IMG/VR virus record: IMGVR_UViG_3300028833_002727
DNA from: a virus
Lineage: Duplodnaviria; Heunggongvirae; Uroviricota; Caudoviricetes
Reading direction: 5' to 3' (one strand)
DNA length: 64,000 nucleotides
Below, in pieces: positions 3,261-26,738 of this stretch. The notes below the pieces were generated by a model. That model searched no databases. It was given only the letters and a program-made list of their open reading frames with translations, and had not been told where the DNA came from. The translations under genes and the position numbers were made by a program. Every line of letters starts with the position of its first letter. Positions within the stretch are counted from its first letter, which is position 1.

Positions 3261-3528
3261 AAGCCTAATGTTTTTCAAATCTGGTGCAAAGGTACAACTT
3301 TTTTTTCATATAGCCAAATAAAAAATGAAAAAAATGCAAAAAAGTGAGAAAATGACGTTTTTTTTCATTTTTTTGCCAAAAAATTTGGTTATTTGAAAAA
3401 CTTGTATATTTTATAATACACGCGTAAACCCCTAATATATCAATGGGTGACATAGCGAGATTTTGGGCACAACAAAAAGAACGAACTACCTTTCGATAAT
3501 CCGTTCTAATTTTCAACGCGGTGTGACT

Positions 3529-3696
3529 TTATTTGAAAACCGCTTTAATGGTGTCGCCAAATTCTTGGGATGCCTTGACAACCTTTTCAGCGTTCTCCTT
3601 TGTAGCCACTTTCTTGGCTTTCTCTTTTACAACTGCGTATGCCCCAGTCCCAGCGAGAACGATACCAATTGCTAAACCAATCAAAAACTTTTTCAT
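3529..3696 (-). CDS. small membrane-anchored protein (55 aa, not in ORF track)
   Basis: MKKFLIGLAIGIVLAGTGAYAVVKEKAKK...; AGGAGG upstream. Confidence 0.65.
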   Translation of the reverse strand: MKKFLIGLAIGIVLAGTGAYAVVKEKAKKVATKENAEKVVKASQEFGDTIKAVFK

Positions 3697-3722
3697 TTTA
3701 TACCTCCTTTTTTAGTTGTTAC

Positions 3723-3788
3723 TTACTTGTTTTTGTACGCAATTACTGCCAAAGTAATTACGCAGCCAATGATAATTCCTGCTAACAT
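3723..3788 (-). CDS. 21-aa hydrophobic micropeptide
   Basis: MLAGIIIGCVITLAVIAYKNK fills the gap between neighbouring genes. Confidence 0.4.
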   Translation of the reverse strand: MLAGIIIGCVITLAVIAYKNK

Positions 3789-3802
3789 AGTTTTAATTAT
3801 TT

Positions 3803-4084
3803 TTAATCGTTAAACGTAACTTCTTCCACTTGGATTTTGCCCTCCCAATAATCATCAAATTGGTTGGCATCAATCATAATGCGCAATCCGTCCTCTTCAA
3901 TTTCGGTATTGATTTCTTCCTCATCGTAACCTACTTTATCGAAACTTTCTCGCGCTTGCTCATAATCAGATTGTAATTGTGCTTGCGCTTCTTCTTTTGA
4001 GCCGAATGCTTTAACAGCCACATCGCCCTCAAATTTACTTCCGTTACCCCACTCGGAAATGTAATTATAGATTGTTTTTTTCAT
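3803..4084 (-). CDS. acidic early protein, FxTxEEA-like paralog family
   Basis: KAFGSKEEAQAQLQ. Confidence 0.75.
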   Translation of the reverse strand: MKKTIYNYISEWGNGSKFEGDVAVKAFGSKEEAQAQLQSDYEQARESFDKVGYDEEEINTEIEEDGLRIMIDANQFDDYWEGKIQVEEVTFND

Positions 4085-4111
4085 ATTTGTAATCCTTTCT
4101 TTTTTTAATTG

Positions 4112-4723
4112 TTAAATCCAATTTTTCATTTCACCTGCTTTTATTTTTGCAACCACATCTGCAAGTTTTAACCAACCGCTATGGACGTGTTTTTTGTTTG
4201 CATTATCCCAATAGTCATGCGTTACGTACCAAGTATTTCCGTCAAAGTAGTAAGCATAACTATCGCATAATGCGTTTTCGGATGGTAATTCACCATTATG
4301 CAGGAATGGTTCTTTGTAGTACTCCAAATTACCATTTTCTTTGCGCCTACATTTGCAAATAGGTGTGTCATTGAAAATGAAACGTGGGGTAGAAATGAAA
4401 CCATAGCAGCCATATTTGGACTTTGTGCCGCCGTATGTATTTACGGAATCCAAGTCACCCATAGCGAGAAGATTGAGAACCTTATCGTAGGTGTCATAGT
4501 GTTTCAGCAAATCTTCACCAATACCACCATTCACGTAGGAATCAAAGTGGTTAAATACTCGTAAGTATTCTGCGTGTGTCGGAATCTCCAAATCCGGAAT
4601 TGGATTGTTGAGAAACTTTTTGTTCTTGCGATACGAACCTGCTAATTTCGTAACCTTGAACTTAACTACTTGTCCCTTACTCTCGTCTTTGAGTTTAAGG
4701 TAGATGTGTCCGCGTGTGCTCAT
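4112..4723 (-). CDS. conserved phage protein (MSTR...HxDxY family)
   Basis: MSTRGHI...NHFDSY...GEDLLKHY...GDL. Confidence 0.7.
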   Translation of the reverse strand: MSTRGHIYLKLKDESKGQVVKFKVTKLAGSYRKNKKFLNNPIPDLEIPTHAEYLRVFNHFDSYVNGGIGEDLLKHYDTYDKVLNLLAMGDLDSVNTYGGTKSKYGCYGFISTPRFIFNDTPICKCRRKENGNLEYYKEPFLHNGELPSENALCDSYAYYFDGNTWYVTHDYWDNANKKHVHSGWLKLADVVAKIKAGEMKNWI

Positions 4724-4740
4724 AATCTTTAAGTGTTTTT

Positions 4741-4758
4741 TATCCTCATTCGAGGACA
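4741..4758. repeat. 18-bp motif B, copy 2
   Basis: TATCCTCATTCGAGGACA. Confidence 0.75.
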
Positions 4759-4764
4759 TTGTTA

Positions 4765-5010
4765 TTACTCAACGATGTCACTAATCAGTTTATCGTATAT
4801 GTCGTCTTTGATTTCGTCAAATCCGAATGGCTCAAATTCTACTCCGTACGAGTCTTCTTTTTCGCCCCAAGCGTGAATACCGTCTTTGTCAGCGTGATGC
4901 GCATACGTTGGCTCAAAGCCATCCCCAGTCCAATTTCCGTCAATAGCGACATTTCCACCGAACTCTACGCGTCCATTTTTTGCTTTTTCAATCAATTCTT
5001 CTTTACTCAT
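4765..5010 (-). CDS. small acidic protein
   Basis: Start MSKEELI after promoter ~5073. Confidence 0.7.
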   Translation of the reverse strand: MSKEELIEKAKNGRVEFGGNVAIDGNWTGDGFEPTYAHHADKDGIHAWGEKEDSYGVEFEPFGFDEIKDDIYDKLISDIVE

Positions 5011-5128
5011 AATAAGATAAGTTTTAATTGTTATACATTGTTGCCGACAATGGTTCACTTTTCAAATCTGCTGCAAAATTACAACTTTTTTTTCAAATAA
5101 CCAAATTTTTTGACAAAAAAATGCAATT

Positions 5129-5449
5129 TTATGCAACTTTTTTTTCTAATGCGCTATAATACGCATAGGTTTGTATTTCTTCAATCATTGGTTGGAGTTT
5201 GTCACTATCGGTACGTATCTGCGTATCTAACGTGTACTTCTCCCAATCTAATTGAAGTAGTATGCGATGCAATACATCTTTGAGTTCGCGTAAACGCGGT
5301 GCTTTGTAAATCTTCACATCTTCCAGCACTTCGGTTTGGAAGTTAAAGATAAGTTTGAATTTGATTTCATTCTTACCTTTGTTGTGAGCCACTACAACCT
5401 GCACGCGTTCACATTCTTCACCCATATAGTCCAGCGCGACTAATCTCAT
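5129..5449 (-). CDS. hypothetical phage protein
   Basis: Start overlaps stop of upstream gene. Confidence 0.7.
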   Translation of the reverse strand: MRLVALDYMGEECERVQVVVAHNKGKNEIKFKLIFNFQTEVLEDVKIYKAPRLRELKDVLHRILLQLDWEKYTLDTQIRTDSDKLQPMIEEIQTYAYYSALEKKVA

Positions 5450-5766
5450 TGTGCTATTACCCTTAATTTACCCAATGACATACATATATCGCCTACGTGA
5501 CACATGGATGCTTGCACATTGTATAAGCCACGATATTCAAGGCATTTTTCCTTTTGCTCTTGCGTGAGTTCATCCTTTTTCGGATATATCAGTTCCAACA
5601 AGCGCGGAGATTTTGGATGCTCCAACAATTCGCCAATGGCCGGAATTGCGATTGCACGTCCGTCTTGACAATATACATCATATTCGTGCTCTTCGTTGTC
5701 ACCGAAAATCTTTTTGTTAGTGAAGAGCATACCCTCTTCTACAAGATAATCAAATTTCTTTGCCAT
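5446..5766 (-). CDS. hypothetical phage protein
   Basis: Co-oriented ORF. Confidence 0.7.
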   Translation of the reverse strand: MAKKFDYLVEEGMLFTNKKIFGDNEEHEYDVYCQDGRAIAIPAIGELLEHPKSPRLLELIYPKKDELTQEQKEKCLEYRGLYNVQASMCHVGDICMSLGKLRVIAQ

Positions 5767-5784
5767 AGTATTATTGTTTTGAAG

Positions 5785-6012
5785 TTATCCCCAAATTCTA
5801 CCGCTTGGAGTATAGCGTACGATTTGACTTGTTTCATCGTCACCTACGGAAACGTGTCCAAATGTTCTGCGTTCTCTTTTAGCAGCCCAAGCCGCCCATT
5901 TTAACACACTTGCTTTGCTTTTGAAAAAGCGTAAGCCGCACGCATGATAGATGTAATTCGCATCCTTATCATACACAGTCAAACTGTAACTTTTGCCTAA
6001 TGTAAATCTCAT
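5785..6012 (-). CDS. hypothetical phage protein
   Basis: First gene after promoter ~6040. Confidence 0.65.
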   Translation of the reverse strand: MRFTLGKSYSLTVYDKDANYIYHACGLRFFKSKASVLKWAAWAAKRERRTFGHVSVGDDETSQIVRYTPSGRIWG

Positions 6013-6197
6013 AACCACTTTGTTTTAACGTTTCATGGTGCAAAGGTACAAAAAATAATTCAAACTACCAAATAATTCTTCAAAAAAATGCAAAAAAACG
6101 CTATTTTGTAAAGTCCAGTTAGCAAAATGAAAAAAAGTGTGATTTTTATTTGGTTATTTGAAAAAAAAGTGTATTTTACAATATATCACGCTAAGCA

Positions 6198-6236
6198 CAA
6201 AAAAAATAGCGCCTATTCTCACGAACTGACGCTACC
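6198..6236 (-). terminator. intrinsic terminator
   Basis: TAGCGTC...GGCGCTA hairpin plus T-run on minus strand; near-copy at ~17085. Confidence 0.7.
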
Positions 6237-6371
6237 ACTTTATTATTTAACACTTTGTGATTATGGTTTTAATTGATTTTCTCTACAGGAACTTCCTCGT
6301 TGTTTACACCTTACAAAATAGATGTTACAACAATACGATGAAATTATTCGTCCACGCTGATATGTATCTGT

Positions 6372-6626
6372 TTACACCTCTAAGTTGTCGAGGTTATCCT
6401 GCTTAGGAACTTCCGTTTTCGGCTCATCTTTATCCCACACTTGGATGAAGTTGTAGGCGATACACACGATTGCGGTTACTAAACCCTGCACAATCATGTA
6501 TAATGCGCACAATTCAACGTTTTTGTCGGAGGTTTTGAGCAGGTGGAGGTATAAACCACCCAACATACCCATTACACTCAGTAAGCCGATACATGTGGCT
6601 ATAAAAATTTTAGTTATTGTTTTCAT
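6372..6626 (-). CDS. small two-TM membrane protein
   Basis: Two hydrophobic stretches; start MKTITK. Confidence 0.65.
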   Translation of the reverse strand: MKTITKIFIATCIGLLSVMGMLGGLYLHLLKTSDKNVELCALYMIVQGLVTAIVCIAYNFIQVWDKDEPKTEVPKQDNLDNLEV

Positions 6627-6642
6627 TGCTTTTTCCTTTCTT

Positions 6643-6831
6643 TTAGATTTCCCAACCGATTTCACTGACTCGGTTTCCGTCTTCATCTTCGATTGTGTAA
6701 CCTCGCATTTGGTCTATATCCACAATCTTAACTCTACTTCCGCGTGTCATTTTACCGAGAAGATTTTCGTGAATTCTTTTTGTTGTTACCCAATCTCCAA
6801 TTTTGGGTGTGTTGTTCTTAATAAAAGCCAT
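6643..6831 (-). CDS. small SH3/KOW-like protein
   Basis: PKIGDWV...RVKIVDI. Confidence 0.6.
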   Translation of the reverse strand: MAFIKNNTPKIGDWVTTKRIHENLLGKMTRGSRVKIVDIDQMRGYTIEDEDGNRVSEIGWEI

Positions 6832-6849
6832 ATTCGCTGCTCCTTTCTT

Positions 6850-7389
6850 TTAGAGTTTTACATCAACCTCATGGATTTCGTACTTAACGAACGAATTGTA
6901 GCCGCTATCATGTACTACACCTTTGTCGAAATCAATCGTGATTTCGTCTTCGGTAAAGCGATCCAGCAAATCAGCCTTTTCACGTTTTAACGATTCGTGA
7001 AGATATATCTCTGCTTGCTCCCTCGTGGGGAATACATTCGGACAAATACCTGCACACGTTTCGTTTCCGCTTGTTTCGGAAATCCAATTGATTGCGAACA
7101 TCGTTTTCGGTACGCTAACCGATGAGTTACCTTTTTCAATGACACGCATGTTACCTACTACGCGCTCAATCGTGTAGAAATTGTACACCTCATGTCCCTC
7201 GCTTGCAAGGAAATCCTCTACGTAGATTGTGGTAGGCAGATTTTGCCCTACACGTACACGGACGAGTTTTCCTGCGTTATTTTCTTCTTTTGCTACTACA
7301 TCGCCTACTACTTTTTCAGCGTGTTGATTGTCAAGGAGAATAAGAATATCTCCGACTTGCAAATCATTGTACGATACTTTGTGTTTCAT
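6850..7389 (-). CDS. two-domain early protein (SH3-like plus FxTxEEA-like)
   Basis: N-half similar to 16460 ORF; C-half VFPTREQAE. Confidence 0.7.
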   Translation of the reverse strand: MKHKVSYNDLQVGDILILLDNQHAEKVVGDVVAKEENNAGKLVRVRVGQNLPTTIYVEDFLASEGHEVYNFYTIERVVGNMRVIEKGNSSVSVPKTMFAINWISETSGNETCAGICPNVFPTREQAEIYLHESLKREKADLLDRFTEDEITIDFDKGVVHDSGYNSFVKYEIHEVDVKL

Positions 7390-7484
7390 AATCACTAATG
7401 TTTTTTGTTAAATCTGCTGCAAAGGTACAACAAATTTTTCAATTAACCAAATTTTTTCGCAAAAAAATGCAAAAAAAGTTAATT

Positions 7485-8195
7485 TTATTCCATTTTAGCC
7501 TTTAAGTCAGCCAAGACTTCCAAATCACCCAGTTTTTGCTTGTCCCCCTTGTACAAAGGATAGGACATGCAAATTCGGTATAAATCGGCTGGCAGGAAGT
7601 ACTGACTACGCGTATCGTTCTCATCTTCGGGTTTGATGTGCTCGATGAAGTCCGGCATTTCTTGGCTATACTTCGCAGCCATACTTGTGCGGCGCGCATT
7701 TGCATACATTGCATTTGCGTATCTGTCGCAAAGTTTGATACACGGAGCGTACGGAGTTTCACGGATGCCGCGATAGTACTTCTCATTCGCACGCTCTGCA
7801 CGCGTTTTGCCTTTCTCATTAGTGAGTGCGTACACGATGTCGGCTGCAAGTTCGGCTTGTGCCTGGCCCATGTATTCTTTCGCAATTTTCACTACATCGT
7901 TGTAGGTTAAGCGGCAATCTTCAATCGTATCGTGGAAGATAGAACCAAAGATAGCAGCCAAGCCGTCAGATTCGATTGCGTTCTCATACTCGGCTATGTT
8001 GATGAAACACTCAGCAGCGAACTGCATAAATGTGTTCGATACCATATTGGTGTGGAAACTATACGGAAGTTCATCGTACTTTTGGTTTACACTTGCATGT
8101 ACCAAAGCCGCTTGTTTCTGCATGTTACCGATTGTTTCTTTATTCTCGCAAAGGAACTTATCCCAAGCCTTTTGCACTAATTCCTGCTTTTCCAT
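7485..8195 (-). CDS. HD-domain hydrolase, RelA/SpoT/Mesh1-like
   Basis: HASVNQKY..PYSFH, FHDTIED, IKLCDRYAN motifs. Confidence 0.85.
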   Translation of the reverse strand: MEKQELVQKAWDKFLCENKETIGNMQKQAALVHASVNQKYDELPYSFHTNMVSNTFMQFAAECFINIAEYENAIESDGLAAIFGSIFHDTIEDCRLTYNDVVKIAKEYMGQAQAELAADIVYALTNEKGKTRAERANEKYYRGIRETPYAPCIKLCDRYANAMYANARRTSMAAKYSQEMPDFIEHIKPEDENDTRSQYFLPADLYRICMSYPLYKGDKQKLGDLEVLADLKAKME

Positions 8196-8207
8196 AATGT
8201 TCAATTT

Positions 8208-8594
8208 TTACAAATTGTCTTTAAAGTTAGTTTTTCGCCATGCCAGCGTGAGTTCAAACCGATAGTAGTTTTCATCGTTGCGCGGCAGATAGAACGGATA
8301 GTTGTGCCCTCTCTCAAACACATTGTGCTCGTAGCACACTTCTTCACCGACTTGTTTGCTGATACGCGGCGCAATCTTGTATATGCTGTCGCCATGCTCT
8401 TCGGTTTCACCATTTCCGTTTTCGCTCATATCAAGCGTAACAATGGTGTCTTCGTCAATGATTCCGTCTTCATCTTTTCCGTTGATGAGAAGTATTTTGC
8501 CGAAACCGAATAAGTCCGGTTCACGATAATTGCAGTTGAATACGCGTTCGCCAATCTTAAAATGGCGATGTTTCATTTTCATCTTTTTAGCCAT
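8208..8594 (-). CDS. hypothetical phage protein
   Basis: Co-oriented ORF. Confidence 0.7.
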   Translation of the reverse strand: MAKKMKMKHRHFKIGERVFNCNYREPDLFGFGKILLINGKDEDGIIDEDTIVTLDMSENGNGETEEHGDSIYKIAPRISKQVGEEVCYEHNVFERGHNYPFYLPRNDENYYRFELTLAWRKTNFKDNL

Positions 8595-8605
8595 AATCGT
8601 GTTAT

Positions 8606-9004
8606 TTAGAAATTTAACTTGGAAACTACCATATCGTTTACAATGTGCTCAACGATAAATTGTCCATAGGTTTTGTTTGTAATACTTTTCTTTAGCTTAA
8701 TAAAGTCAAGCATTTCTTTTTCGGTTTCCACCCATTCCTCATATCCGTCATACCAATGCCCAATCGTTTTGTAACGAACAACTTCACCAAATGCCCACTT
8801 ATCGGGTATATCTTTTGTACCCAACAAGGAATAACGAATGTGAAAACCGTCATTGATTCGCGCTCTCGTTATTTGTCCTATACATCCTTTCGGGTACGTA
8901 CGTAAGAACGCTATTCGTGTTCTACAATCATTGAGATTTGGGAAAGCCTCTTTGATTTCTTTGTTTCTACCCAAGTCGGTATAAGTTATTTTGTACATTG
9001 CCAT
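8606..9004 (-). CDS. hypothetical phage protein
   Basis: First gene after promoter ~9030. Confidence 0.7.
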   Translation of the reverse strand: MAMYKITYTDLGRNKEIKEAFPNLNDCRTRIAFLRTYPKGCIGQITRARINDGFHIRYSLLGTKDIPDKWAFGEVVRYKTIGHWYDGYEEWVETEKEMLDFIKLKKSITNKTYGQFIVEHIVNDMVVSKLNF

Positions 9005-9123
9005 AGTCGTAGTGTTTTTAATTTGACACTGCAAAAGTACTGCTTTTTTTTCAATCTACCAAATAATTTGATAGAAAAATGCAAATAAAGTGTATTTTGT
9101 AAAGTCGAGTTAGCAAAACGCTA

Positions 9124-9561
9124 TCAGTCCAACGAAATTTCGATTGAGTTAGACGCTTGTGGTGTGATACGTATTCTACCATTGCAACTGCGTAGAACTA
9201 ACGTTGTTCCATCGTCATCAAGCGAGAACGAATAACCCCACTTGTAGAAATGTGCTGAATCTCTTCTATCGAAAGCTGTTAAGTTCAACAGCGCATCACA
9301 TTCGCGCATAACTTGTTCACCATCGCGTTCGATTTTGAAATCATCTGGTGTAGGTGAGGTGCGGTAGTTTCGATAATCGCTATCAAATTCATTAACGCCC
9401 AAAAGGTTTTGGTTCAGTAAGACAAGACAATAGCGTTCATCGCTATAAGCCAAATAATCGTGAACCGACATTTTTGCCCTACTCGCTTTCGCAACAAGGC
9501 TATTTTGTACTTTCTTGCTTAACATGGAAAGCAAACCTTTATATTCAATGTCATTTAGCAT
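9124..9561 (-). CDS. hypothetical phage protein
   Basis: Co-oriented ORF. Confidence 0.7.
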   Translation of the reverse strand: MLNDIEYKGLLSMLSKKVQNSLVAKASRAKMSVHDYLAYSDERYCLVLLNQNLLGVNEFDSDYRNYRTSPTPDDFKIERDGEQVMRECDALLNLTAFDRRDSAHFYKWGYSFSLDDDGTTLVLRSCNGRIRITPQASNSIEISLD

Positions 9562-9595
9562 AATTGTATTGGTTTTATTGGTTATACATTTTTTT

Positions 9596-9613
9596 GGTAC
9601 TCAATCGAGGATA
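9596..9613. repeat. 18-bp motif B, copy 3
   Basis: GGTACTCAATCGAGGATA. Confidence 0.85.
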
Positions 9614-9617
9614 TAGG

Positions 9618-10319
9618 TTAGATTGTCATAACCTTTTCGTTCCTACCCGTAGGTGTGGAGATTGTAACGCGTGGGTACACATGCTTTCTTCCGTAACGCT
9701 CGTACTCGTAATCACCATTGTCCACCCACTCATGTGTGTCAAGTATGGCAACCACTTTGTTACCACTCTTGTAGGTGTCTTTGATTTGTTTCATCAAACG
9801 TGCGCATGATATTTCGTCACCTGCCAAGTAAGTGAAATTGCTATATGATTTGTCGCTGCGCTTTTGGCACACATCGCACACATACATGTCGGTGATACCC
9901 AACGTGAATTTTGCTTTCTTCTGCAACCACTTTTGCAGTTCGATGAAAGACTTGCAGGGAGTAATCTTCACGATACCCATGACACACTCCAACTCTGCGT
10001 ATTTGTCGCAATGCCAAACGTAGTCAGTACCGCAAACAATATCTCGTTTCTCACGGATATATACGATATTATCCTTACGCAGTTTCTCTTCAAGCGCAGC
10101 GAATTGTTTCTGCAATGCTTGTGCGAACGAAAACAATGTTTTGAACTCGCCATTGTCTTGGATGCGCTTACCGCCAATCTCTACCCAATAATACTTGTGG
10201 ATGTGTTGGCGATGTCCGTTTACAATGTTGCCCATTGTTGTACACTCACCATAGTTAATGTTTGCTTGGTGATAGTTTGCTACTGCATCAAGAATGTCTT
10301 TTACTTTAATTTCTTCCAT
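9618..10319 (-). CDS. hypothetical phage protein
   Basis: 233-aa ORF after promoter ~10349. Confidence 0.75.
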   Translation of the reverse strand: MEEIKVKDILDAVANYHQANINYGECTTMGNIVNGHRQHIHKYYWVEIGGKRIQDNGEFKTLFSFAQALQKQFAALEEKLRKDNIVYIREKRDIVCGTDYVWHCDKYAELECVMGIVKITPCKSFIELQKWLQKKAKFTLGITDMYVCDVCQKRSDKSYSNFTYLAGDEISCARLMKQIKDTYKSGNKVVAILDTHEWVDNGDYEYERYGRKHVYPRVTISTPTGRNEKVMTI

Positions 10320-10556
10320 AATCGTTGGTGTTATTTGTTAAATCTGCTGCAAAGGTACAAAAATTATTTCAAATAACCAAATAATTTGCCTACAAAATTA
10401 CAAGAAATATCAAATTGCGAAATCCACTTTACAAAATGGGGTAATTGCTGACTATTATAAAATATACTTTTTTTTCAAACTACCAAATTTTTTGATGAAA
10501 AAATAACAAAAAAAACACCTACCATTTGGTAAGTGCTTTTTTAATGAGTAAGCAGG

Positions 10557-10844
10557 TTACACTTCGATGTCGCGGATTCTCCACCACTCATCAAGCGTTT
10601 CCATTTCGCCATACGTGCAATTAGCGTAACGTTCGGAGCAGGTGAAATAAAACTTGTTTTCCAAATCATCTTGCGTAATGTCGTTACCCTCATTTTCCTT
10701 TTCTTGTTCAATGTAGGTTTGACATGCAGCGTTGTACTGCTTACGCATCTCACATTGTGCGCTTTCTAACGTGTCGAACACTTGCGCGTCCTCTACGTTG
10801 CGTGGGTAATCATCGTTACCTTTGAAAAGTAAGTACTTTTTCAT
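10557..10844 (-). CDS. acidic early protein, FxTxEEA-like paralog family
   Basis: QVFDTLESAQCEM. Confidence 0.75.
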   Translation of the reverse strand: MKKYLLFKGNDDYPRNVEDAQVFDTLESAQCEMRKQYNAACQTYIEQEKENEGNDITQDDLENKFYFTCSERYANCTYGEMETLDEWWRIRDIEV

Positions 10845-11035
10845 TCCTCCCCCCTTTCTTCACGCACGATTGCGTTGTATTCGTCCAACTTCTTGCAGAC
10901 TTCTTCGTAAGATGTGGCGCGGACTTGTTCCATATCTCCGTCAGGACCATCTACACCCCAATAGAACCCTACATAATCGTTTTCTCCGTACTTGATGATT
11001 TTATCACCATTGTACTCCAATTCTTCCGGTTTCAT
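10841..11035 (-). CDS. small acidic protein
   Basis: Stop overlaps next start. Confidence 0.65.
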   Translation of the reverse strand: MKPEELEYNGDKIIKYGENDYVGFYWGVDGPDGDMEQVRATSYEEVCKKLDEYNAIVREERGEE

Positions 11036-11036
11036 G

Positions 11037-12692: not shown

Positions 12693-12710
12693 GGTACTCA
12701 ATCGAGGATA
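12693..12710. repeat. 18-bp motif B, copy 4
   Basis: GGTACTCAATCGAGGATA overlapping stop of the 12698 ORF. Confidence 0.85.
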
Positions 12711-13801: not shown

Positions 13802-14024
13802 AATCTTATCCTTTTTTATTTGACAATGCAAAGGTACAAAAATTATTTCAAACTACCAAATAATTCTTCAAAAAAATGCAATTTAACTGAAAATTGCAAA
13901 GTAGAGATTACAATTTATACTTTTTTGCTTTTTTTATTTGGTTATTTGAAATAAAAGTGTATTTTACAATATATCCAACCATACACAAAAAAAAATAGCA
14001 CCTACTTTCGTAAGTGCCATTCCG

Positions 14025-16898: not shown

Positions 16899-17159
16899 AT
16901 TGTATGCTTTATCAAATCTGCTGCAAAGATAATACATTTATTTCAATCTACCAAATTATTCATCAAAAAAATAACAAAAATGTGCATTTTGCTAACTCCA
17001 TTTTACAATTTACACTTTTTTATCATTTTTATTTGGTTATTTGAAATTTTTTTATATTTTACAATATATGCACAAATGGACCATAAAAAATGACGTCTAT
17101 TCTCACGAACTGACGCCACCACAAAACCATTTTAACCTTTATTATGACAACATTTATTT

Positions 17160-17360
17160 TCAATTTTCATAGACGAAGAGTCCGTCCTTGAACTTTTGCT
17201 CTGCGTCCTCTATCGTATCGGCATAGACTATCTTGTCTGCGTCTTCCTCAACGGAATAACCCATGACGTAGCGATTTGCTCCGGTTGTCGCTTTCTTATA
17301 GTCTTGTTCACTCATCCCAATGTGAACCAAGTCACTTGGATTCAATACTTGTGCGCTCAT
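17160..17360 (-). CDS. hypothetical phage protein
   Basis: Co-oriented ORF. Confidence 0.6.
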   Translation of the reverse strand: MSAQVLNPSDLVHIGMSEQDYKKATTGANRYVMGYSVEEDADKIVYADTIEDAEQKFKDGLFVYEN

Positions 17361-17362: not shown

Positions 17363-17584
17363 TTATAACTCCATTTGAATTGCACTTATGTCCTTTATTT
17401 CAAGGAAATATGTACCACTTTTATCAATAATTTGGAGTGTTTTATCTTTTGTGTTTACGTTATACTCACAAGTACCCTCGTTTGTTTTAGTCACAAACGT
17501 AAGACGTGTGCCACCGACAACAACCGATTTTATTGCTCCGCCCTCTGCGAAACCAAGAATGTTTTTAATTGTTTCAATACTCAT
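17363..17584 (-). CDS. hypothetical phage protein
   Basis: After promoter ~17613. Confidence 0.65.
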   Translation of the reverse strand: MSIETIKNILGFAEGGAIKSVVVGGTRLTFVTKTNEGTCEYNVNTKDKTLQIIDKSGTYFLEIKDISAIQMEL

Positions 17585-17692: not shown

Positions 17693-17866
17693 TTACAAAT
17701 TGGTACTCAATCGAGTACCTTTGTGTTTAACTTTGCGGGTGTATTGTTTTTTACTTTTTGACACCGATGAATAGTTGATTGGCTTTCCGTGAGCCGCAAT
17801 TTCATCTTCCCTGCTTTTCTTCCGTGCAGCTTTGAGTGCCAATAATATATCATCAGTCTTTTTCAT
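17693..17866 (-). CDS. 57-aa basic protein (not in ORF track), weakly ArfA-like C-terminus
   Basis: MKKTDDILLALKAARKKSREDEI...SKSKKQYTRKVKHK; start overlaps upstream stop. Confidence 0.6.
   Translation of the reverse strand: MKKTDDILLALKAARKKSREDEIAAHGKPINYSSVSKSKKQYTRKVKHKGTRLSTNL
17702..17719. repeat. 18-bp motif B, copy 5 (perfect 7-bp arms)
   Basis: GGTACTC-AATC-GAGTACC. Confidence 0.85.
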
Positions 17867-18870: not shown

Positions 18871-19047
18871 TTATGCAGCATTACGCGCCAAAATTTCTTT
18901 TGTTGCTTTCTCTACCTGCTCTTGCATAGATTCGCGCTTTACTTGTTCGTGCATTTGCTTACCCTTTTCACTTGGTACGGACAATGCACCTACTGCAAGA
19001 ATTGAAACGATGATTGTTACTAACAATGTAATCTCAAATGTAGTCAT
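18871..19047 (-). CDS. small membrane protein
   Basis: N-terminal TM segment. Confidence 0.6.
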   Translation of the reverse strand: MTTFEITLLVTIIVSILAVGALSVPSEKGKQMHEQVKRESMQEQVEKATKEILARNAA

Positions 19048-19244
19048 ATTTACTCCTTTCGTTAAAACTTTGTGCAAAGGTACAAAAAATAATTCAAACT
19101 ACCAAATTTTTTTGAATAAAAATGCAAAAAACCTGCAAATTGTAAACTCCACTTTACAAAATTCACTTTTTTCGTAAAAAGTTGCTTAATAATTTGCTCA
19201 TGTCAAAAAAAAGTGTATTTTACAATATATGCAGCCGTGCCTAC

Positions 19245-19320
19245 AAAAAAACATGCCGACTTTCACAAGCCGACATGCACGTTAAACCATTAAACCCTTA
19301 TAGAATAGAAAGAAATCAGT
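19245..19320 (-). terminator. terminator plus conserved 3' UTR, duplicated at 20651-20719
   Basis: CATGTCGGCTTG(T/G)GAAAGTCGGCATG plus T-run, preceded by TATAAGGGTTTAATGGTTT in both copies. Confidence 0.8.
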
Positions 19321-19333
19321 TACTCGAAATGTT

Positions 19334-19627
19334 TTATGATTGATATTCTTTTTTCACCGAAAAACAAAGATAAGGTATGCAATCCTGCGGGCACACAAAA
19401 TATGCAAATCGTAACACATCTTCGTGCTGCTTGACAAACTTATCTAACGCTTTTTTGAATACGTTCCTGCGTATATCTACCATTACCTCAATTTCCTTAC
19501 TCCAAATGCTAATTGGACTAATATAAAAGCCGTCGCTCAAATGATACCCACACTTGCGTATGTGACGCTCAAAAACAGGGACGTTGTGAATATCATCAAT
19601 CAGTTTTCTTGCAATGTCTTTTTTCAT
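19334..19627 (-). CDS. hypothetical phage protein
   Basis: Monocistronic unit (promoter ~19654, terminator 19245). Confidence 0.7.
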   Translation of the reverse strand: MKKDIARKLIDDIHNVPVFERHIRKCGYHLSDGFYISPISIWSKEIEVMVDIRRNVFKKALDKFVKQHEDVLRFAYFVCPQDCIPYLCFSVKKEYQS

Positions 19628-19742
19628 ATTGACTTGTTTTTACGTTTGACGCTGCAAAATTACAAAAAATTTTTCAAACTACCAAATTTTTTGATGATAA
19701 AATGTCAATTTTCTTTATTTTGCTAACTCTACTTTACAATTT

Positions 19743-19760
19743 GGTACTCAATCGAGGACA
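19743..19760. repeat. 18-bp motif B, copy 6
   Basis: GGTACTCAATCGAGGACA. Confidence 0.85.
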
Positions 19761-19765
19761 ACCTA

Positions 19766-20437
19766 TTAGTCGTCCTCGCCGAATATCGCATGTGTTGCAT
19801 CTATTGCATAGTAGTAATGCCCATTACCACATCCTTTGTATTCCTCCGAATACCAAGCGCGCATTATATTATTTTTTGCATCAAATCTACACTCTACGCT
19901 ATTGTCATAGCCTTTGTGCCACCGCATACTAAACTCGCCTTTTGTTTCGATAGCGTTTGCAAACATTGGCATAAGGTTAGTTCTGCGCCAAGCGTCATAG
20001 TTGATACTCTTGATGCCTTTTTGTACCGTCCATTTTAGACAATCTACGCCACATTGACGATGATACAAACCGAGTTCCTGAGCTATTGCCTGACTCTCAT
20101 CCCACTCTGCGTGCAAGAATTTGCCCAGACGCTCATCGTCTAATTGAGCAACAATTTTGAAGTCATGCAAAAAGTTACTCCACAAACCGCTTTTCTCCAA
20201 TGTAGCAATCACCTTTTTGATGAAACTACGTGTTTTTTTGAGCAAATCTTGCTCCTTGTTGAGCGGTTCGATATTGACTACACCGGTCGAATCGAAATAG
20301 TGCCCATATTTGCGGCTGCGTTTGTTAAACTCGCAAAGGTTGCCCTCGCGCGAAAAGAATAAACGTGCTACGCGTTTGTGTCCGTCAGCGTACGTAATTA
20401 CATGTTCGTACTGCGTTGTTGAAATGTTTTGTGCCAT
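19766..20437 (-). CDS. conserved hypothetical phage protein
   Basis: 223-aa ORF; AWYSEEYKGCGNGHYY. Confidence 0.8.
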   Translation of the reverse strand: MAQNISTTQYEHVITYADGHKRVARLFFSREGNLCEFNKRSRKYGHYFDSTGVVNIEPLNKEQDLLKKTRSFIKKVIATLEKSGLWSNFLHDFKIVAQLDDERLGKFLHAEWDESQAIAQELGLYHRQCGVDCLKWTVQKGIKSINYDAWRRTNLMPMFANAIETKGEFSMRWHKGYDNSVECRFDAKNNIMRAWYSEEYKGCGNGHYYYAIDATHAIFGEDD

Positions 20438-20723
20438 AGTGATTTTCCTTTCTTTTATAGGGTTCTCTTAAAAAACTATGCAAAGGTACAAAAAAAATCT
20501 GACATACGCAAGTTTTTTGACAAAAAAACACAAAAAAAGTGTATTTTGCTAACTACACTTTACAAAATGAAGTTTTTTTGAAAATAATCACTCGGATCCT
20601 TGCATATTCCAAAAAAAAGTGTATTTTACAATATATGCGTCCGTGTACATAAAAAAAACATGCCGACTTTCCCAAGCCGACATGCCGTCAAACCATTAAA
20701 CCCTTATAGAAAGAAATCTTTGT

Positions 20724-21245
20724 TTACCCACGTAAAATATCTTTGTCCGTAAATTTGTGCGAAAAGATATTGCTATTCCATATATGCTCTAACATATCGT
20801 ATTCGCTTACGTTGTAATCACATTTGCGTTCCCACGCGTCTGCGTGACGTACACCTGCCGCGTTTACCGCTTTCAGTTCCATGTGATGAGTTCCGTCATG
20901 GTGACTTGCAGTTACTTTGATAGTACCCTCATCACTACTTTCGATAGTGATATATTCACAATCTTTTACTATTGCTGCAATGGCGTCCCTTACATCGTTA
21001 AACATCTTTGCACCATTGCGGTTGCCCATCCAAGTGCCAATCGTTCCGTATGCGATACATTTGCGCCCTGCAAACAAGTTTTTCAGTTCTTGCAGACAAT
21101 CGTCCCAATTAGCACGTTCTATCTCCGAAAGTTCGTTCCATACCTGCTCGTCAGTTACTGCGCCACCGCAAGCATCTTCCAAGTAAGCCTTTGTTTCATT
21201 AAAGTTTTCACTTACGTTAGTGTTGTCAAAATAGGTTTTTTTCAT
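20724..21245 (-). CDS. hypothetical phage protein
   Basis: Monocistronic unit. Confidence 0.8.
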   Translation of the reverse strand: MKKTYFDNTNVSENFNETKAYLEDACGGAVTDEQVWNELSEIERANWDDCLQELKNLFAGRKCIAYGTIGTWMGNRNGAKMFNDVRDAIAAIVKDCEYITIESSDEGTIKVTASHHDGTHHMELKAVNAAGVRHADAWERKCDYNVSEYDMLEHIWNSNIFSHKFTDKDILRG

Positions 21246-21430
21246 AATCGTTTATTTTCTAAATCTGATGCAAAGGTACAACTTTTTTTTCATTCTACCA
21301 AATAATTTGATAAGAAAATGTAAATTATTGCAATTTTGCAAACTCTACTTTACAAAATAAAGTTTTTCGTACGATTTATTTGCACATTCCAAATAAAAGT
21401 GTATTTTACAATATATGACGGCCGCGACAC

Positions 21431-21856
21431 AAAAAAGGACGCACTCCTTAGACGTTTGGGGGACTGCACTACTCTATACCTATCCAAACTTTGTCTAATT
21501 TGTGCGTCTAAAACGCGGGACTGCGATACGTCATTGACTGCGCTAAATATTCCGCGTTTTAATTCGGTAATGATATGTTTTAATGTAATGTATTCTAATA
21601 TGCCTACGTTTACGTGTCGGCTCTTATGCGTCTATGTCTCATACACTTGCGCTGTTTTGTGCCCACTCATTTGGGCGGTTCTACATACGATATATAAGAT
21701 TTTTCAAGTTCCGTTCTACATTGCCTTATTAGGGCGGAGGTTTATTTTTCCTCATAGTCTTGTTAAATTTGAAATTAAACAATCACTCTTTCCTTGTGCG
21801 GATCCGTGCCGCTTGTTTTTACCACATAATCTTCATATTTTCTCCTTTCTTTTATT
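21431..21856 (-). ncRNA. candidate structured non-coding RNA (~420 nt)
   Basis: Own host promoter (~21864) and terminal hairpin plus T-run; no credible ORF; AAAACGCGG/CCGCGTTTT and GACGCAC/GTGCGTC stems. Confidence 0.5.
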
Positions 21857-21923
21857 TGACACTGCAAAGGTACAACTTTTTTTTCAAATAACCAAATTTT
21901 TTGAGAAAAAAATGCAAAAAATT

Positions 21924-22118
21924 TTAATTTGCCGCTTTTAGTTGTTCCTCTGCTACTTTGTAGCACTCATCAAAATAATCTTCATCATCATACTTTTCGG
22001 TATCTTCAAAGATTTTTTGCAAATGCTCTTTATTTTCCTTTGTATATGGAAAGTTATTGAGCAAATCTTCGGGTGTCATGTCGTAAAGATTCGACAATGT
22101 GATTTTTTTCTTTGCCAT
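21924..22118 (-). CDS. small acidic protein
   Basis: Co-oriented ORF. Confidence 0.6.
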   Translation of the reverse strand: MAKKKITLSNLYDMTPEDLLNNFPYTKENKEHLQKIFEDTEKYDDEDYFDECYKVAEEQLKAAN

Positions 22119-22130
22119 AGTCAAATCTCC

Positions 22131-22382
22131 TTATAAGCACACCGCAAGATTCTCTACCGCTTTTCTACCCTCATCGGTGTGCATCTTGTATTGGAAAGAT
22201 TCTTCACGCAATAATGCACCGATAATAATCTTCGGCAACTCATAATCGTCACCATAAGCGGTAATGTCAATCGCACCGCTATTAAACGCGCGTGCAATGT
22301 TTTTACGCATGTGTTGTGCGCTTTCTCTAATCAGTTGGCGCGTCTTACGCTCAATCTCTTTTTTAAGTTGTTTCTCTGTCAT
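22131..22382 (-). CDS. hypothetical phage protein
   Basis: After promoter ~22410. Confidence 0.7.
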   Translation of the reverse strand: MTEKQLKKEIERKTRQLIRESAQHMRKNIARAFNSGAIDITAYGDDYELPKIIIGALLREESFQYKMHTDEGRKAVENLAVCL

Positions 22383-22601
22383 AATAACAATGTTTTAACG
22401 TTTCATGGTGCAAAGGTACAAAAAAAATTTGATATAGCCAAATTATATTGAATAAAAATGCAAAAAAAGTGTATTTTGCAAAGTAGAGTTTACAATTTTC
22501 ATTTTTTTGTACGAATTATTTGCACAATTCAAAAAAAAGTGTATTTTACAATATATGAAAATCAACCACAAAAAAAAAGCGACTTGTTCAGTCGCTCTCT
22601 C

Positions 22602-22814
22602 TTACGATAGCACAATCGAATTGCGCAGTTTCCACTCACCGCTTTTTTCGTCACGGAATTGGACATCTTCCCCTTGTCGGAACTCTTTTACCCAAAGTTC
22701 GTGATAGCCGTTGCACTCTTCGTCGTCACTAACAAGGACAATGTAATCCCCTTTGTTTTCTGCGACTGCTCTATTAAGCAGTTCCGCTAATTCTTTTACT
22801 GATACTGGTCGCAT
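22602..22814 (-). CDS. hypothetical phage protein
   Basis: SDDEECNGYH motif. Confidence 0.65.
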   Translation of the reverse strand: MRPVSVKELAELLNRAVAENKGDYIVLVSDDEECNGYHELWVKEFRQGEDVQFRDEKSGEWKLRNSIVLS

Positions 22815-22815
22815 A

Positions 22816-23007
22816 TTATTTCAATTTGATATTAAGTTCAACACCCGACTTGTCATAGTCATTATAATGCACATCTTTTACGCCCTCTAAACTCGGCAGT
22901 TTCATTGCCCAAAGCAATGCCTTGCGAATTATTTTGAATAGGGCGATTCTTCCCTCTTTCGTTTCGATGTGTTTCCAATCCTGGATTGTAATTGTCATTT
23001 TTTCCAT
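22816..23007 (-). CDS. hypothetical phage protein
   Basis: Tight packing. Confidence 0.6.
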   Translation of the reverse strand: MEKMTITIQDWKHIETKEGRIALFKIIRKALLWAMKLPSLEGVKDVHYNDYDKSGVELNIKLK

Positions 23008-23034
23008 ACTTTTTTTTTCCTTTCGTTTATGGGT

Positions 23035-23268
23035 TTATTTTCTTATAAAATGTTCAATCATTGAAGATACCAAAATGTAATGTGTTTTTGTTTGTTTGCA
23101 CATATCTGCGTAAGGGTTCGGATAGTCCAAAGCAAGTTCTTTGTACAAGTCTGGAAGATTCTCCTTAATCAGTTTCACAAGTCGCTTGTAATTGCATTTC
23201 CTTGCGCCTTTCATAAGTTCGTCCCACTTGCGTTTCGATATGTCACAACATCTACACTCTAAATACAT
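23035..23268 (-). CDS. hypothetical phage protein
   Basis: Co-oriented ORF. Confidence 0.65.
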   Translation of the reverse strand: MYLECRCCDISKRKWDELMKGARKCNYKRLVKLIKENLPDLYKELALDYPNPYADMCKQTKTHYILVSSMIEHFIRK

Positions 23269-23290
23269 AATTATACTCCTATTAAAAATT

Positions 23291-23308
23291 GGTACTCAAT
23301 CGAGGACA
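23291..23308. repeat. 18-bp motif B, copy 7
   Basis: GGTACTCAATCGAGGACA. Confidence 0.85.
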
Positions 23309-23317
23309 TAGGCACTA

Positions 23318-23806
23318 TTAAAAGTGCCCATTTGTCCGATACTCGTTCACACTCCACGTTCTTACAATCGCAGGCTCGTCTTCTACACATTTGTTGTAGT
23401 TCGCGCCTACTTTGCGTGAGGTGTATTTCATTCCGCTTTCGTCACGTTCGGTGCTCTCCAAACTGCGCTCATAAATCTCTTCCCACGTTCTACCGCCCTG
23501 CAAAGGTAGTGTTTCGGGTAGTACGTTCGCAAGGACAATTCCTTGCATAGTCTTTACGTGTCCTTTGCTAATCAGTTCACCAAGCAAAGCCTTGTGACAT
23601 CTGCGTTGATATTCCAACTCGTCCACACACCAATCGTCTTGAAAGTATGCAAACACATCGTTGCCTTTAATTACCACATGCAGCGGCCACTCTAACGCTT
23701 TTTTCAGCGTTTCTAACTTGTCACTCTTTGCTGCGCCAATGAATACAAGTGCGCTACCTTTTGCGGTGAGGTGACTTTTTTGTTCGCAATTTCTTTTACG
23801 TGCCAT
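23318..23806 (-). CDS. hypothetical phage protein
   Basis: Start MARKRN after promoter ~23859. Confidence 0.7.
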   Translation of the reverse strand: MARKRNCEQKSHLTAKGSALVFIGAAKSDKLETLKKALEWPLHVVIKGNDVFAYFQDDWCVDELEYQRRCHKALLGELISKGHVKTMQGIVLANVLPETLPLQGGRTWEEIYERSLESTERDESGMKYTSRKVGANYNKCVEDEPAIVRTWSVNEYRTNGHF

Positions 23807-24225
23807 AGTTTTTTTCCTTTCTATTTGAGGGTTAATAATGTTGTTTTCTAAATTCGGTGCAAAGGTACAAAAAATTTTTGACATACGCAAGCTTTTTGGA
23901 AAAAAAATTTCAAAAATCGTCATTTTTTTTAATTTTGCAAAGTCTATGTTACAAAATTCACTTTTTTTGCAAAAAAATCACTAAAAACTTGCACAATCAA
24001 AAAAGTTTTATATTTTAGAATACACGCGCGGACAAGACATAAAAAAAACGGACTATTCCTCAGTCCGTTTAATCACCAAATGCCACACATCGCGTAACAT
24101 TCTTGCATAACGCGCTCCGCGTTATCTTTACTCCTCATTTCTTGTAGTTCTTTTTCGTTCATAGGTGTTGTTCTTTCTTTTGGTTGTTAATAAATAGTTT
24201 GTTTGTCGAATAATAGGAAATGCCC

Positions 24226-24570
24226 TTAAAAGAACATTTCCTTGTATTCGCTGCGTAAATCATCCACAATCTTACGCGCTGCGCGGCAAGTTTTGCCAAT
24301 CATACCAATCGCGTAAATGTAGCGATATTCCACAATGTCTTCCGTGTCCGCACCATATTCGTTGATGCAGCCGTTTATGTGAGCGTTCAACTCATCTTCG
24401 GTAACACTCTCACCCAGACGCTCCAAACCGACTTTAATGTCGTTCTTCACGTTCTCACGCACCCATGCTTGCGCCTCTTCAAGCGTAGCAAAATCTTCGT
24501 GCTCACACTCAAACAAGTTTTCTTCCGTTCCGTAGTAAACGCGCCACGCGTTTTTAATCTTCTTTGCCAT
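24226..24570 (-). CDS. early protein, FxTxEEA-like paralog family
   Basis: EDFATLEEAQAWV. Confidence 0.75.
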   Translation of the reverse strand: MAKKIKNAWRVYYGTEENLFECEHEDFATLEEAQAWVRENVKNDIKVGLERLGESVTEDELNAHINGCINEYGADTEDIVEYRYIYAIGMIGKTCRAARKIVDDLRSEYKEMFF

Positions 24571-24724
24571 AATCGAAATTCCTTTCTTTAAGCGGTTAAT
24601 AATAAGTTCAATTCCACCTCAATGTGAAATCTGATGCAAAGTTACGAATTTTTTTTGATATATGCAAGTTTTTCGGCAACTTTTTTTCAAAATCTTAATA
24701 ATCGGCAATTCTATCTTAAAATTC

Positions 24725-24742
24725 GGTACTCATTCGAGGACA
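24725..24742. repeat. 18-bp motif B, copy 8
   Basis: GGTACTCATTCGAGGACA. Confidence 0.8.
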
Positions 24743-24778
24743 TATACCCAAAGAAAAAGAGCCTTGCGGCTCTCTCCC

Positions 24779-25168
24779 CTAATCGGTAGTTTGTAGGTAG
24801 TAACTGAGATTTTCACCCGTCCACTTTTCCATAACAAGCGCATCCGCTTTCTTCCAAAGTTCATCGTACACGCGTGCAAGTTCCTCATTACCGCGCGCGT
24901 TCTGCTCCCAAATCTTCCAATTGAGGGACATTACAAACTCGGTAAAATATACCTTGTCATTAAACCAACTTTTGACTACGTTGTTGTACGTGTCACGCAC
25001 ACTTGCGGCACCTAACCACTCTGCAAGCGATAAATCGCTAAAAAATGTAGTCTTGCGCGTATAGCCACATTCGGATGCCTGGCGCTCAAATACGCGCTCT
25101 TCGCACGCACCATACATAAACACGTTTGTCACTCCGTTCTTTGCTGCAAATTCTTGTACTTTGTTCAT
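24779..25168 (-). CDS. conserved hypothetical phage protein
   Basis: Monocistronic unit ending YYLQTTD. Confidence 0.8.
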   Translation of the reverse strand: MNKVQEFAAKNGVTNVFMYGACEERVFERQASECGYTRKTTFFSDLSLAEWLGAASVRDTYNNVVKSWFNDKVYFTEFVMSLNWKIWEQNARGNEELARVYDELWKKADALVMEKWTGENLSYYLQTTD

Positions 25169-25425
25169 AGCAATATAATTTTTAAGGGTTCAACATTACT
25201 TTTTCAATTCCGACTGCAAAGGTACAACTTTTTTTTGACATGTGCAAGAAAAATCGTATTTTTTTTCATTCTGCTAACTCTACTTTACAAAATGAAGATT
25301 TTTTGCACTTTTTTTACATAGACTCTTGCACATTTCAAAAAGTTTTATATATTGCAATATACACACATACACACGCGTACATTTGCACATATATACACTC
25401 ATAAATGAGCAGGATAAAAAGTATG

Positions 25426-25529
25426 CCCATTTTTAGCCGTTTTGAGACACTTTTAAGACAAAGGTATATAATTGTCCCATTTTTAGCCGTTTTGAGACAC
25501 TTTTAAGACAAAGGTATATAATTGTCCCA
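25426..25529. repeat. perfect 50-bp tandem duplication
   Basis: CCCATTTTTAGCCGTTTTGAGACACTTTTAAGACAAAGGTATATAATTGT x2. Confidence 0.9.
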
Positions 25530-25676
25530 AATTGTCCTAAATAATCGCTCTAAACAAAAAAACAAAAAAAATTCAAAAAAAATCACCAAACTCTTGCATA
25601 TATCAAAAATTTTTATATTTTGCAATAATTGTACGCATACACACAAAAAAAAAGCGGTATTGCTACCGCCTTTTCG

Positions 25677-26261
25677 CTATGCCGCTTTCGCTACAAGATT
25701 GTTTTTCAATGTTGTGCCGTTTAGAGTAATCTCTAAAATGTTCTCGATTTTCACAACTCGGCAAACAACTTGGTTTTCAGTCAGTCCTGCTGCTGCTTGT
25801 GTTGCGCTCGGCTTTTTCTCGGTGAATTGCTTAATCAAAGCAATTTGCTCGTCAGTCGCAGGCTTGCCGCCTACAAAATACTTGTTCTCAACTTTGCCGT
25901 TCTGCACTCCGTAGTAACGAAGATAAATCGTACCTTTGTGCTCAATGAGTTTGTTTTCTTGCCCTGCTACCCATGCGCCCCAACGCAATGCGGCTGCAAT
26001 AAAATCTATCGGTGCTCCTTGCTCTTTTGCACCGCGATTGTTTACCGCGTTCTCGTACGAATAATTTACTTGGAACTGCCCGCTTGTGAGTTTCTCAATC
26101 GGCAGAATCTCGCCGTTCTTGTTCGTCAATGCGCAAATGGCTGCTTTTTGCGACTTGTTCATGTCAGGCTCGCTGATGTAGGACATGTGAATAAATTGGC
26201 AACCTACCAACGCCTTAATTGCGTTAATCACCGTTTCAACAAAGATAGTGTTCTTTTTCAT
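25677..26261 (-). CDS. conserved hypothetical phage protein, first gene of early block
   Basis: 194-aa ORF with promoter ~26336 and GCGGTA/TACCGC terminator. Confidence 0.8.
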   Translation of the reverse strand: MKKNTIFVETVINAIKALVGCQFIHMSYISEPDMNKSQKAAICALTNKNGEILPIEKLTSGQFQVNYSYENAVNNRGAKEQGAPIDFIAAALRWGAWVAGQENKLIEHKGTIYLRYYGVQNGKVENKYFVGGKPATDEQIALIKQFTEKKPSATQAAAGLTENQVVCRVVKIENILEITLNGTTLKNNLVAKAA

Positions 26262-26738
26262 AACTAAAATGATTTAGTGCGTGTGTCACACGCGGTTAGA
26301 CTTTATGTTTTTGGACTCCCTTAATGAAATCCGGTGCAAAGGTACTGCTTTTTTTTGATATATGCAAATTTTTTTGAAAAAATCGTTCAAAAAAGTGCAT
26401 TTTGCTAACTCTACTTTGCAAAATGAAGATTTTTTGCATTTTTCTTCGTTTTTATTTGCGTATTCCAAAAAGTTTGCTATTTTACAATTTGTGCGCGTAT
26501 ATGCGTTTTTATGTGCCGCCCATTATGGTGAATATATTGTTAATAAACGAAGTTTATCAACGATATTTATATTCACTATAATGTTTGAGCGATAAAAAAC
26601 TCGCAGCAGTACAATTTACCACCTGCACTATTTAATGCGCTCAAATCGCAAATAAATGCCCTTTGTGACGATTTTATATTTAATGTATAAATCAAAAATA
26701 TAGGATATATTTTTATTATTTATACGTTAGATATAACT

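Follow-up and report, generated by a model that had tools for sequence, protein, structure and literature searches.

The first 27 kb of the DNA analyzed here, a 64,000-nucleotide stretch of IMG/VR record IMGVR_UViG_3300028833_002727 (hereafter the window), form an array of short genes on the - strand, served by repeated regulatory cassettes of about 190 bp and four parts: the terminator of the upstream unit, a promoter-like sequence that we call the class 2 box, a palindrome and a host-type early promoter. The box, which in nearly all copies points against the direction of the genes, is the subject of this report. The window belongs to an uncultured jumbo phage of gut or rumen Bacteroidota. 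Each early gene or small gene group is headed by a very strong promoter of the Bacteroidota type (class 1), that is, TTTG, a 20-nt A-rich spacer and TAnnTTTG; the last element reads TAccTTTG and is followed by GCA. This pattern has 27 matches on the - strand, about 25 of them of the extended early type, versus one chance match on the + strand. Between 1 and 27 kb we count about 24 cassettes with a stem-loop terminator directly 5' of the host-type early promoter, in a region of ORFan genes, while the late-type genes (27-64 kb) are preceded by a TAT(A)TTTAT box.

The early-array proteins, including the 233-amino-acid (aa) product of the gene behind one of the boxes, have no match in Pfam or PHROG searches, Rfam and tRNA scans of the window returned no matches, and no T4 core gene lies in the window. 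Among deposited phages, neither megablast nor a distant blastn search with one cassette revealed a close DNA relative, and no cultured relative emerged from the ClpB-like protein, whose best matches, at only 32-40% identity, are in unrelated phages. A Gp23-type capsid protein is encoded by three jumbo phages, G005, G001 and G002, and the first of these has the palindrome-and-promoter cassette in common with the window. The class 1 pattern is widespread across many IMG/VR viral contigs and is therefore not a lineage marker.

Our main finding is that the class 2 box is a real element, present far beyond chance, under selection and precisely positioned. An earlier note on this DNA, made by reading the sequence, had listed 12 such boxes on the + strand, and we built a weight matrix from these sites and ran it over the 64 kb. 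It recovered exactly the 12 boxes (scores 37-53); those at 3384 and 25593, listed as having no adjacent palindrome, indeed have none. The same matrix revealed a 13th, weaker box on the - strand. Nothing in the rest of the 64 kb scored above 12, and no box occurs between 27 and 64 kb. With the 17-mer core and up to three mismatches, 14 matches were obtained, compared to 0.93 expected from shuffles. Five more palindromes of the window are without a class 2 box. Coordinates are given in Table 1.

Copies were counted across the window, the related contigs L155, L186 and L187, and three short related contigs, which gave 50 in total; anatomy was measured over the 46 distinct ones. The box is made of two blocks, a near-invariant TTG and a 12-nt core, TAT-n-TTA-n-AATA, with an A-tract spacer between them. 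Its TTTG, with 2.0, 1.85 and 1.70 bits at T2, T3 and G4, qualifies as a -33 element of the Bacteroidota primary sigma factor, and the distance from TTTG to core, 19 nt in 50 of 50 copies and free of indels, falls within the range of about 19-21 nt of such promoters (the real promoters of this phage have 20 nt). Indeed, the left half of the box, with both -33 sub-types, and the A-tract of the spacer are the same as in class 1 promoters. The classes part at the -7 element, which reads TAT(T/A)TT(A/G)(C/T/G), with the consensus TAT(T/A)TT(A/G)C, followed by AATA, instead of TAnnTTTG. TTTG is absent from this position in all 46 distinct copies, so that the -7 element is not that of the primary sigma factor and is as consistently non-canonical as first described. 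Only one position of the core varies freely, giving TT in the window but TA in L187, and it coincides with an 'n' in the TAnnTT register. A tendency of the two arms of one module to have the same -33 sub-type is weak (p ~0.05, for copies that are non-independent).

Three other identities of the box were considered and rejected. It is not a late promoter, (G/A)TATTTAT without -35/-33, as its core differs at the 3' positions and it has a conserved -33 element; nor does it mark a leaderless micro open reading frame (ORF) starting at an ATG past the core, as this ATG is absent in many copies and the next 13-16 nt vary. It is not like a miniature inverted-repeat transposable element either, as its outer ends are not inverted repeats.

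The box is placed with precision relative to the palindrome. In the window, the distance between the palindrome centre and the first T of its TTTG is 33.5 bp in five cases, 43.5 bp in four and 44.5 bp in one, which bears out, from a slightly different reference point, the 35 or 45 bp (once 46) of the earlier note. Over all copies the distance is mostly 33.5 or 43.5 bp, and 23.5 bp in two. On the other side, the class 1 TTTG is in nearly all cassettes 43.5 bp from the palindrome centre. The back-to-back TTTGs of box and class 1 promoter are thus separated by about 66, 76, 86 or 96 bp, each step being one helical turn, with one L155 copy at 45 bp. Since the -33 elements stand back-to-back at 66-96 bp, the putative starts would lie about 150 bp apart. 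Symmetric bidirectional promoters have opposed starts a few tens of bp apart and one AT-rich element in common; the present pair, with its opposed starts far from each other, is not a symmetric promoter with overlapping -10 elements.

The box is also closely placed relative to the terminator of the upstream unit. Ten of the 12 + strand boxes, in agreement with what had been stated for most of them, face a clear hairpin and U-run of an upstream - strand unit, the exceptions being those at 25325 and 26455. From the end of the box to the U-run there are 13-17 nt in 37 of the 47 reversed copies, despite several unrelated types of hairpin sequence, and the 13-16 nt in between are variable in sequence and higher in G+C. 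Moreover, every strong - strand terminator that a scan detected in 3-23 kb adjoins a class 2 box. It is conceivable, from this tight distance and from a promoter anatomy with a defective -7 element, that the box is a non-productive docking site (decoy, reservoir or roadblock), at which RNA polymerase holoenzyme would bind the -33 element and A-tract and seldom escape. A polymerase parked 13-17 bp behind the U-run would then block read-through into the next cassette, or raise the local polymerase concentration. We find this quite unlikely: the core is conserved beyond what a merely disabled promoter needs, some copies have no terminator to guard (25325, 26455 and several in L155), and a polymerase whose footprint extends to about +20, as its usual size would suggest, should collide with the one arriving before the latter had completed the hairpin.

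The box is conserved in related phages, and lack of such conservation was among the findings that the earlier note had named as refuting its proposal: it is kept in L155, L186, L187 and short related contigs. The first three were found by protein look-ups. L155 is a 68.8-kb contig with about 70-91% DNA identity to the window, while in L186 (36.9 kb) and L187 (387.7 kb) a 173-aa flanking protein is, respectively, 73% and 49% identical to that of the window. The exact core with its A-tract was found in five metagenome contigs. One of them, L137, is unrelated; the others (L134, L135, L136 and L138) have retained the box, and their longest alignments with the window show 80-93% identity. In IMG/VR, a search for the exact core gave single chance matches only. 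Where synteny between the window and L134, L155 or L186 is interrupted, the break falls at a cassette, and the cassette is kept where flanking genes and terminators differ. The box itself is perfectly kept where flanking genes, terminators or both are unrelated (22519 compared to L155 and L138; 25593 compared to L155). All four phages have retained the palindrome-free box of the 25593 type, together with an adjoining non-coding gap of about 200-300 bp.

As for this gap, its presence between two boxes of the same direction is kept in L155, L186 and L187, and its sequence is not. In the window, where it measures about 230 bp and separates boxes 25325 and 25593, it holds a perfect 50-bp tandem repeat (2.1 copies, 25426-25529), each unit of which contains a - strand match to the -7 box.

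Relative to the genes, 47 of the 50 copies are reversed and three are forward. The three forward copies represent one orthologous site in three phages, 5' of a palindrome, a promoter and the 233-aa gene, and their distance to the palindrome varies among phages (62.5 versus 86.5 bp). The assembly of promoter, operator and mirror arm proposed at the outset therefore stands in part: the layout holds, in helical phase, but the conserved palindrome-free copies and the forward copy of three phages show that the box depends neither on the palindrome nor on the reverse orientation.

Cassettes that are kept while the intervening genes and terminators are swapped among relatives might also be explained by recombination alone. 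The box would then be an inverted, decayed promoter arm fused to an operator half and spread with the cassettes by recombination and gene conversion, and would do nothing more than extend the homology available for gene shuffling. Both arms and the operator halves do form one sequence family, and a distant relative has an otherwise identical cassette that is devoid of the box. This explanation is nonetheless highly improbable in our view, as all 50 copies retain the 12-nt core, in phages diverged to 49% protein identity, while adjacent spacers of the cassette differ, and neither the quantized spacing nor the 47:3 orientation bias is expected from neutral decay.

The distant relative is G005, a 327-kb T4-type phage of IMG/VR with many palindromes at the same distance from the class 1 promoter. 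The class 2 box is absent from the distant T4-type jumbo phages G001-G005, where counts equal those of controls. As G005 has palindrome and promoter without the box, the latter is a lineage-specific addition to an older palindrome-plus-promoter unit. The 26-bp palindrome and the 43.5-bp promoter distance are kept in G005 (loci L156-L181) with a ClpB-like protein only 34% identical, so that a conserved factor, perhaps encoded by the host, may be involved. In L155 (10194-10580), an early protein of 128 aa has a precomputed match to a Fis-type helix-turn-helix (HTH) domain (PF02954) and is a candidate for DNA binding; the matching part of the window contains two shorter ORFs (17160-17360 and 17363-17584).

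Table 1. Class 2 boxes and associated features of the window
Feature	Position	Strand	Remarks
Class 2 box	3384-3420	+	No palindrome; 65 bp from TTTG of promoter 3287-3318
Class 2 box	6149-6185	+	
Class 2 box	10451-10487	-	Forward (gene) orientation; 233-aa gene at 9618-10319; orthologues in L186 and L187
Class 2 box	13937-13973	+	
Class 2 box	17032-17068	+	
Class 2 box	19193-19229	+	
Class 2 box	20599-20635	+	
Class 2 box	21379-21415	+	
Class 2 box	22519-22555	+	
Class 2 box	23988-24024	+	Variant core
Class 2 box	25325-25361	+	Variant core; followed by ~230 bp of non-coding DNA, no terminator
Class 2 box	25593-25629	+	No palindrome; kept as a unit in L155, L186 and L187 though both flanks differ
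Class 2 box	26455-26491	+	Variant core
Palindrome, 26 bp	6103-6128		Between two promoter-like arms
Other box-associated palindromes	10412, 13891, 16986, 19137, 20543, 21333, 22473, 23932, 25268, 26399		
Host-type early promoter	6041-6072	-	Back-to-back with box 6149
Other partner promoters	3287-3318, 10350-10381, 13829-13860, 16924-16955, 19075-19106, 20481-20512, 21271-21302, 22411-22442, 23860-23891, 25217-25248, 26337-26368	-	
Intrinsic terminator (hairpin and U-run) of upstream unit	6199-6234	-	Faced by box 6149
Equivalent terminators	3474-3506, 13987-14023, 17085-17118 (approximate), 19245-19277, 20651-20684, 21431-21452 (weak), 22570-22595, 24041-24067, 25645-25669		
Terminator ahead of forward box	10509-10542		
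17-nt hairpin motif	9596-9612, 12693-12709, 17702-17718, 19743-19759, 23291-23307, 24725-24741	-	

The box also resembles the palindrome. Over about 20 nt, comprising its A-tract, a short flank and the core up to base nine or ten, it nearly matches a palindrome half-site with its flank, and both the core region and the half-site resemble the spacer and -7 region of class 1. From its sequence, the cassette looks as if it had been built from reiterated pieces of one promoter-like sequence, and the likeness to the half-site suggests that the factor binding the palindrome may also control the box. One may go further and consider the box an auxiliary operator or architectural site, whose half-site-like core would be bound by the palindrome-binding protein, of phage or host, without any transcript being made; the protein might loop or wrap the control region of about 150 bp and so tune the real early promoter. 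Such a role would suit the strict phasing of box and palindrome as well as the 20-nt likeness, by which core searches at three mismatches also picked palindrome halves. It leaves unexplained the invariant TTG exactly 19 nt 5' of the core, the palindrome-free copies conserved in four phages and the forward copy, which is 62.5 or 86.5 bp from the palindrome depending on the phage. Furthermore, the class 2 core differs from the operator half-site at three positions, all of which are themselves conserved. We therefore hold the auxiliary operator to be unlikely.

Its invariant TTG, fixed spacing, class 1-like A-tract and conserved core and start region lead us to predict that the box is probably a site recognized by RNA polymerase holoenzyme, be it productive or not. 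A further step, which we take only tentatively, is to view it as a second, non-canonical class of promoter making antisense or convergent transcripts over the upstream unit. We favour a real promoter over a docking site or an auxiliary operator because the conserved forward and palindrome-free copies suggest that the box is autonomous and can work in either direction, as a promoter would. The promoter reading also draws support from the fact that the box is kept where its flanks are unalignable or replaced, and at 49% identity of the flanking protein (L187). From anatomy, phasing, conservation and orientation bias, which are observed, we infer polymerase binding, firing, its timing and its effect.

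As a promoter, the box would belong to the early regulatory cassette of the phage, a terminator-promoter unit of the promoter-early stem-loop (PeSL) type. Its host-type -33 element and spacing would allow the holoenzyme of the host to dock, and a strictly kept core and start region take the place of the TAnnTTTG -7 element. Candidate readers of this odd element are the primary sigma factor of the host, acting weakly, another sigma factor, or a phage-modified polymerase. In nearly all copies the box stands back-to-back with the early promoter, and the palindrome, on the same helix face, would be a regulator site common to both. As it points at the terminator of the upstream unit, its firing would send polymerase and antisense RNA over the 3' end of that unit, and the effect could be insulation of the cassette by polymerase collision or shut-off of the early message by antisense RNA. 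The conserved forward copy may act as a tandem promoter for the 233-aa gene.

In its strongest form, this proposal makes the box a purpose-built convergent-promoter device for insulation or early shut-off, with a -7 specificity of its own, which follows each early terminator at a fixed 13-17 bp and is in phase with the common operator. A cue, such as a phage factor or modified polymerase, would bring antisense transcription or head-on polymerase to the 3' end of each early unit. We consider this version rather doubtful; if true, it would be an undescribed way, repeated and modular, to time or insulate phage early genes.

Several points weigh against the box being a promoter. The -7 core is without the TTTG that defines promoters of the Bacteroidota primary sigma factor, and mutagenesis has reportedly shown this TTTG to be needed for activity, so that the host holoenzyme alone may fire poorly at the box. 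No copy precedes any gene in 27-64 kb, which argues that the box is not a general class of gene expression signal. It is absent from G005, where a terminator or the upstream gene abuts the palindrome. On the + strand, no T-run follows the hairpins that are faced, with the consequence that a + strand transcript would not stop there, and neither a + strand terminator nor a conserved + strand product lies downstream. Finally, the core, near-identical to a palindrome half-site with its flank, would fit a regulator site equally well. Contig ends were tried as indicators of transcript ends and abandoned: no such signal appears in JGI or Logan contigs, and Logan contigs break at repeats.

Other features of the window were noted in passing. 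A 17-nt small-hairpin motif without U-run occurs six times on the - strand (0 expected), just past stop codons and either about 20-30 nt ahead of the next start codon or abutting a palindrome that has no class 2 box; at 24725 it instead precedes a plain early promoter by about 50 nt. The motif may be a signal for RNA processing or coupling. Between a full early promoter (21865-21896) and a terminator, about 420 nt of the - strand (21431-21865) are without an ORF of at least 30 aa from ATG. A non-coding RNA or a dead gene may lie here; L155 and L134 can be aligned to this region only in its portion below about 21560. Bordering the early array, behind a late-type box, a 628-aa protein with DUF723, zinc-ribbon and HTH features is encoded on the - strand (26983-28869); it has thousands of homologues in unrelated contigs and is probably the product of a mobile, homing-endonuclease-like gene. 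Being widespread and probably mobile, it was discarded as a synteny marker.

The cassette is a compact unit: within about 190 bp, a strong host-type promoter and a conserved operator are joined by a second, promoter-like arm whose start-site element is different. Its parts are candidate genetic tools for Bacteroides and Segatella. If the box fires, it would reveal a new promoter specificity in Bacteroidota and a natural design with antisense or convergent control built into each early unit; should it do no more than bind a protein, it would extend the operator.

To our knowledge, nothing is known from experiment about transcription control in T4-type jumbo phages of gut and rumen Bacteroidota. 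Divergent back-to-back promoters with an operator in common, each arm serving a gene, are a classical arrangement, as in PR and PRM of lambda. Class I activator sites are phased at about -61.5, -71.5 and -81.5. Similarly, the two promoter-like elements described here diverge from a central dimer-type palindrome at distances that change by helical turns. Unlike in lambda, the second arm drives no gene, its -7 element is non-canonical and the unit is repeated many times per genome.

A second, non-canonical promoter motif, PM2, has been described in Bacteroides thetaiotaomicron, where it is enriched at antisense and internal starts (PMC7366714). Like the box as we read it, PM2 is a second promoter motif in Bacteroidota. 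The comparison covered a single PM2 example, the upstream region of gibS taken from two related metagenome-assembled genomes (MAGs), which shows no likeness to the box. In one Bacteroides MAG (L189, 4000-4050), the sequence just 5' of the small-RNA start reads like the late box of the phage, TAT(A)TTTAT, and the non-canonical promoter class of the host and the late class of the phage may be related.

Phikmvvirus phages, LUZ19 among them, have a conserved antisense promoter in their early region, which has been proposed to keep transcription out of the early genes later in infection (PMC10914365). Both there and here, a conserved promoter, or in our case a promoter-like box, faces against early-region genes. 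The Phikmvvirus promoter is present in a single copy per genome, serves a single-subunit phage polymerase and has been mapped experimentally, whereas the box has a host-type -33 element and at least 12 copies per genome, one per cassette.

The cassette as a whole has its parallel in the PeSL cassettes of T4-type phages (PMC2839356, PMC4122927). As in these, a composite stem-loop terminator lies directly 5' of a strong host-type early promoter, the unit recurs among the ORFan genes of a hyperplastic early region, and cassettes are found where close relatives differ by the insertion, deletion or replacement of genes. The remark of the earlier note that it knew of no described element with this layout needs qualifying, as the unit elaborates the known T4-type cassettes and hence has precedent, and the PeSL idea of gene shuffling is extended to a new phage-host group. 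Described PeSLs differ in having neither a palindromic operator nor a second, reversed promoter-like arm, and the present cassettes, with their four parts in about 190 bp, serve a Bacteroidota host, hence the -33/-7 type of promoter. By its sequence, the cassette is an elaboration of PeSL to which a reversed, non-canonical, promoter-like arm has been added.

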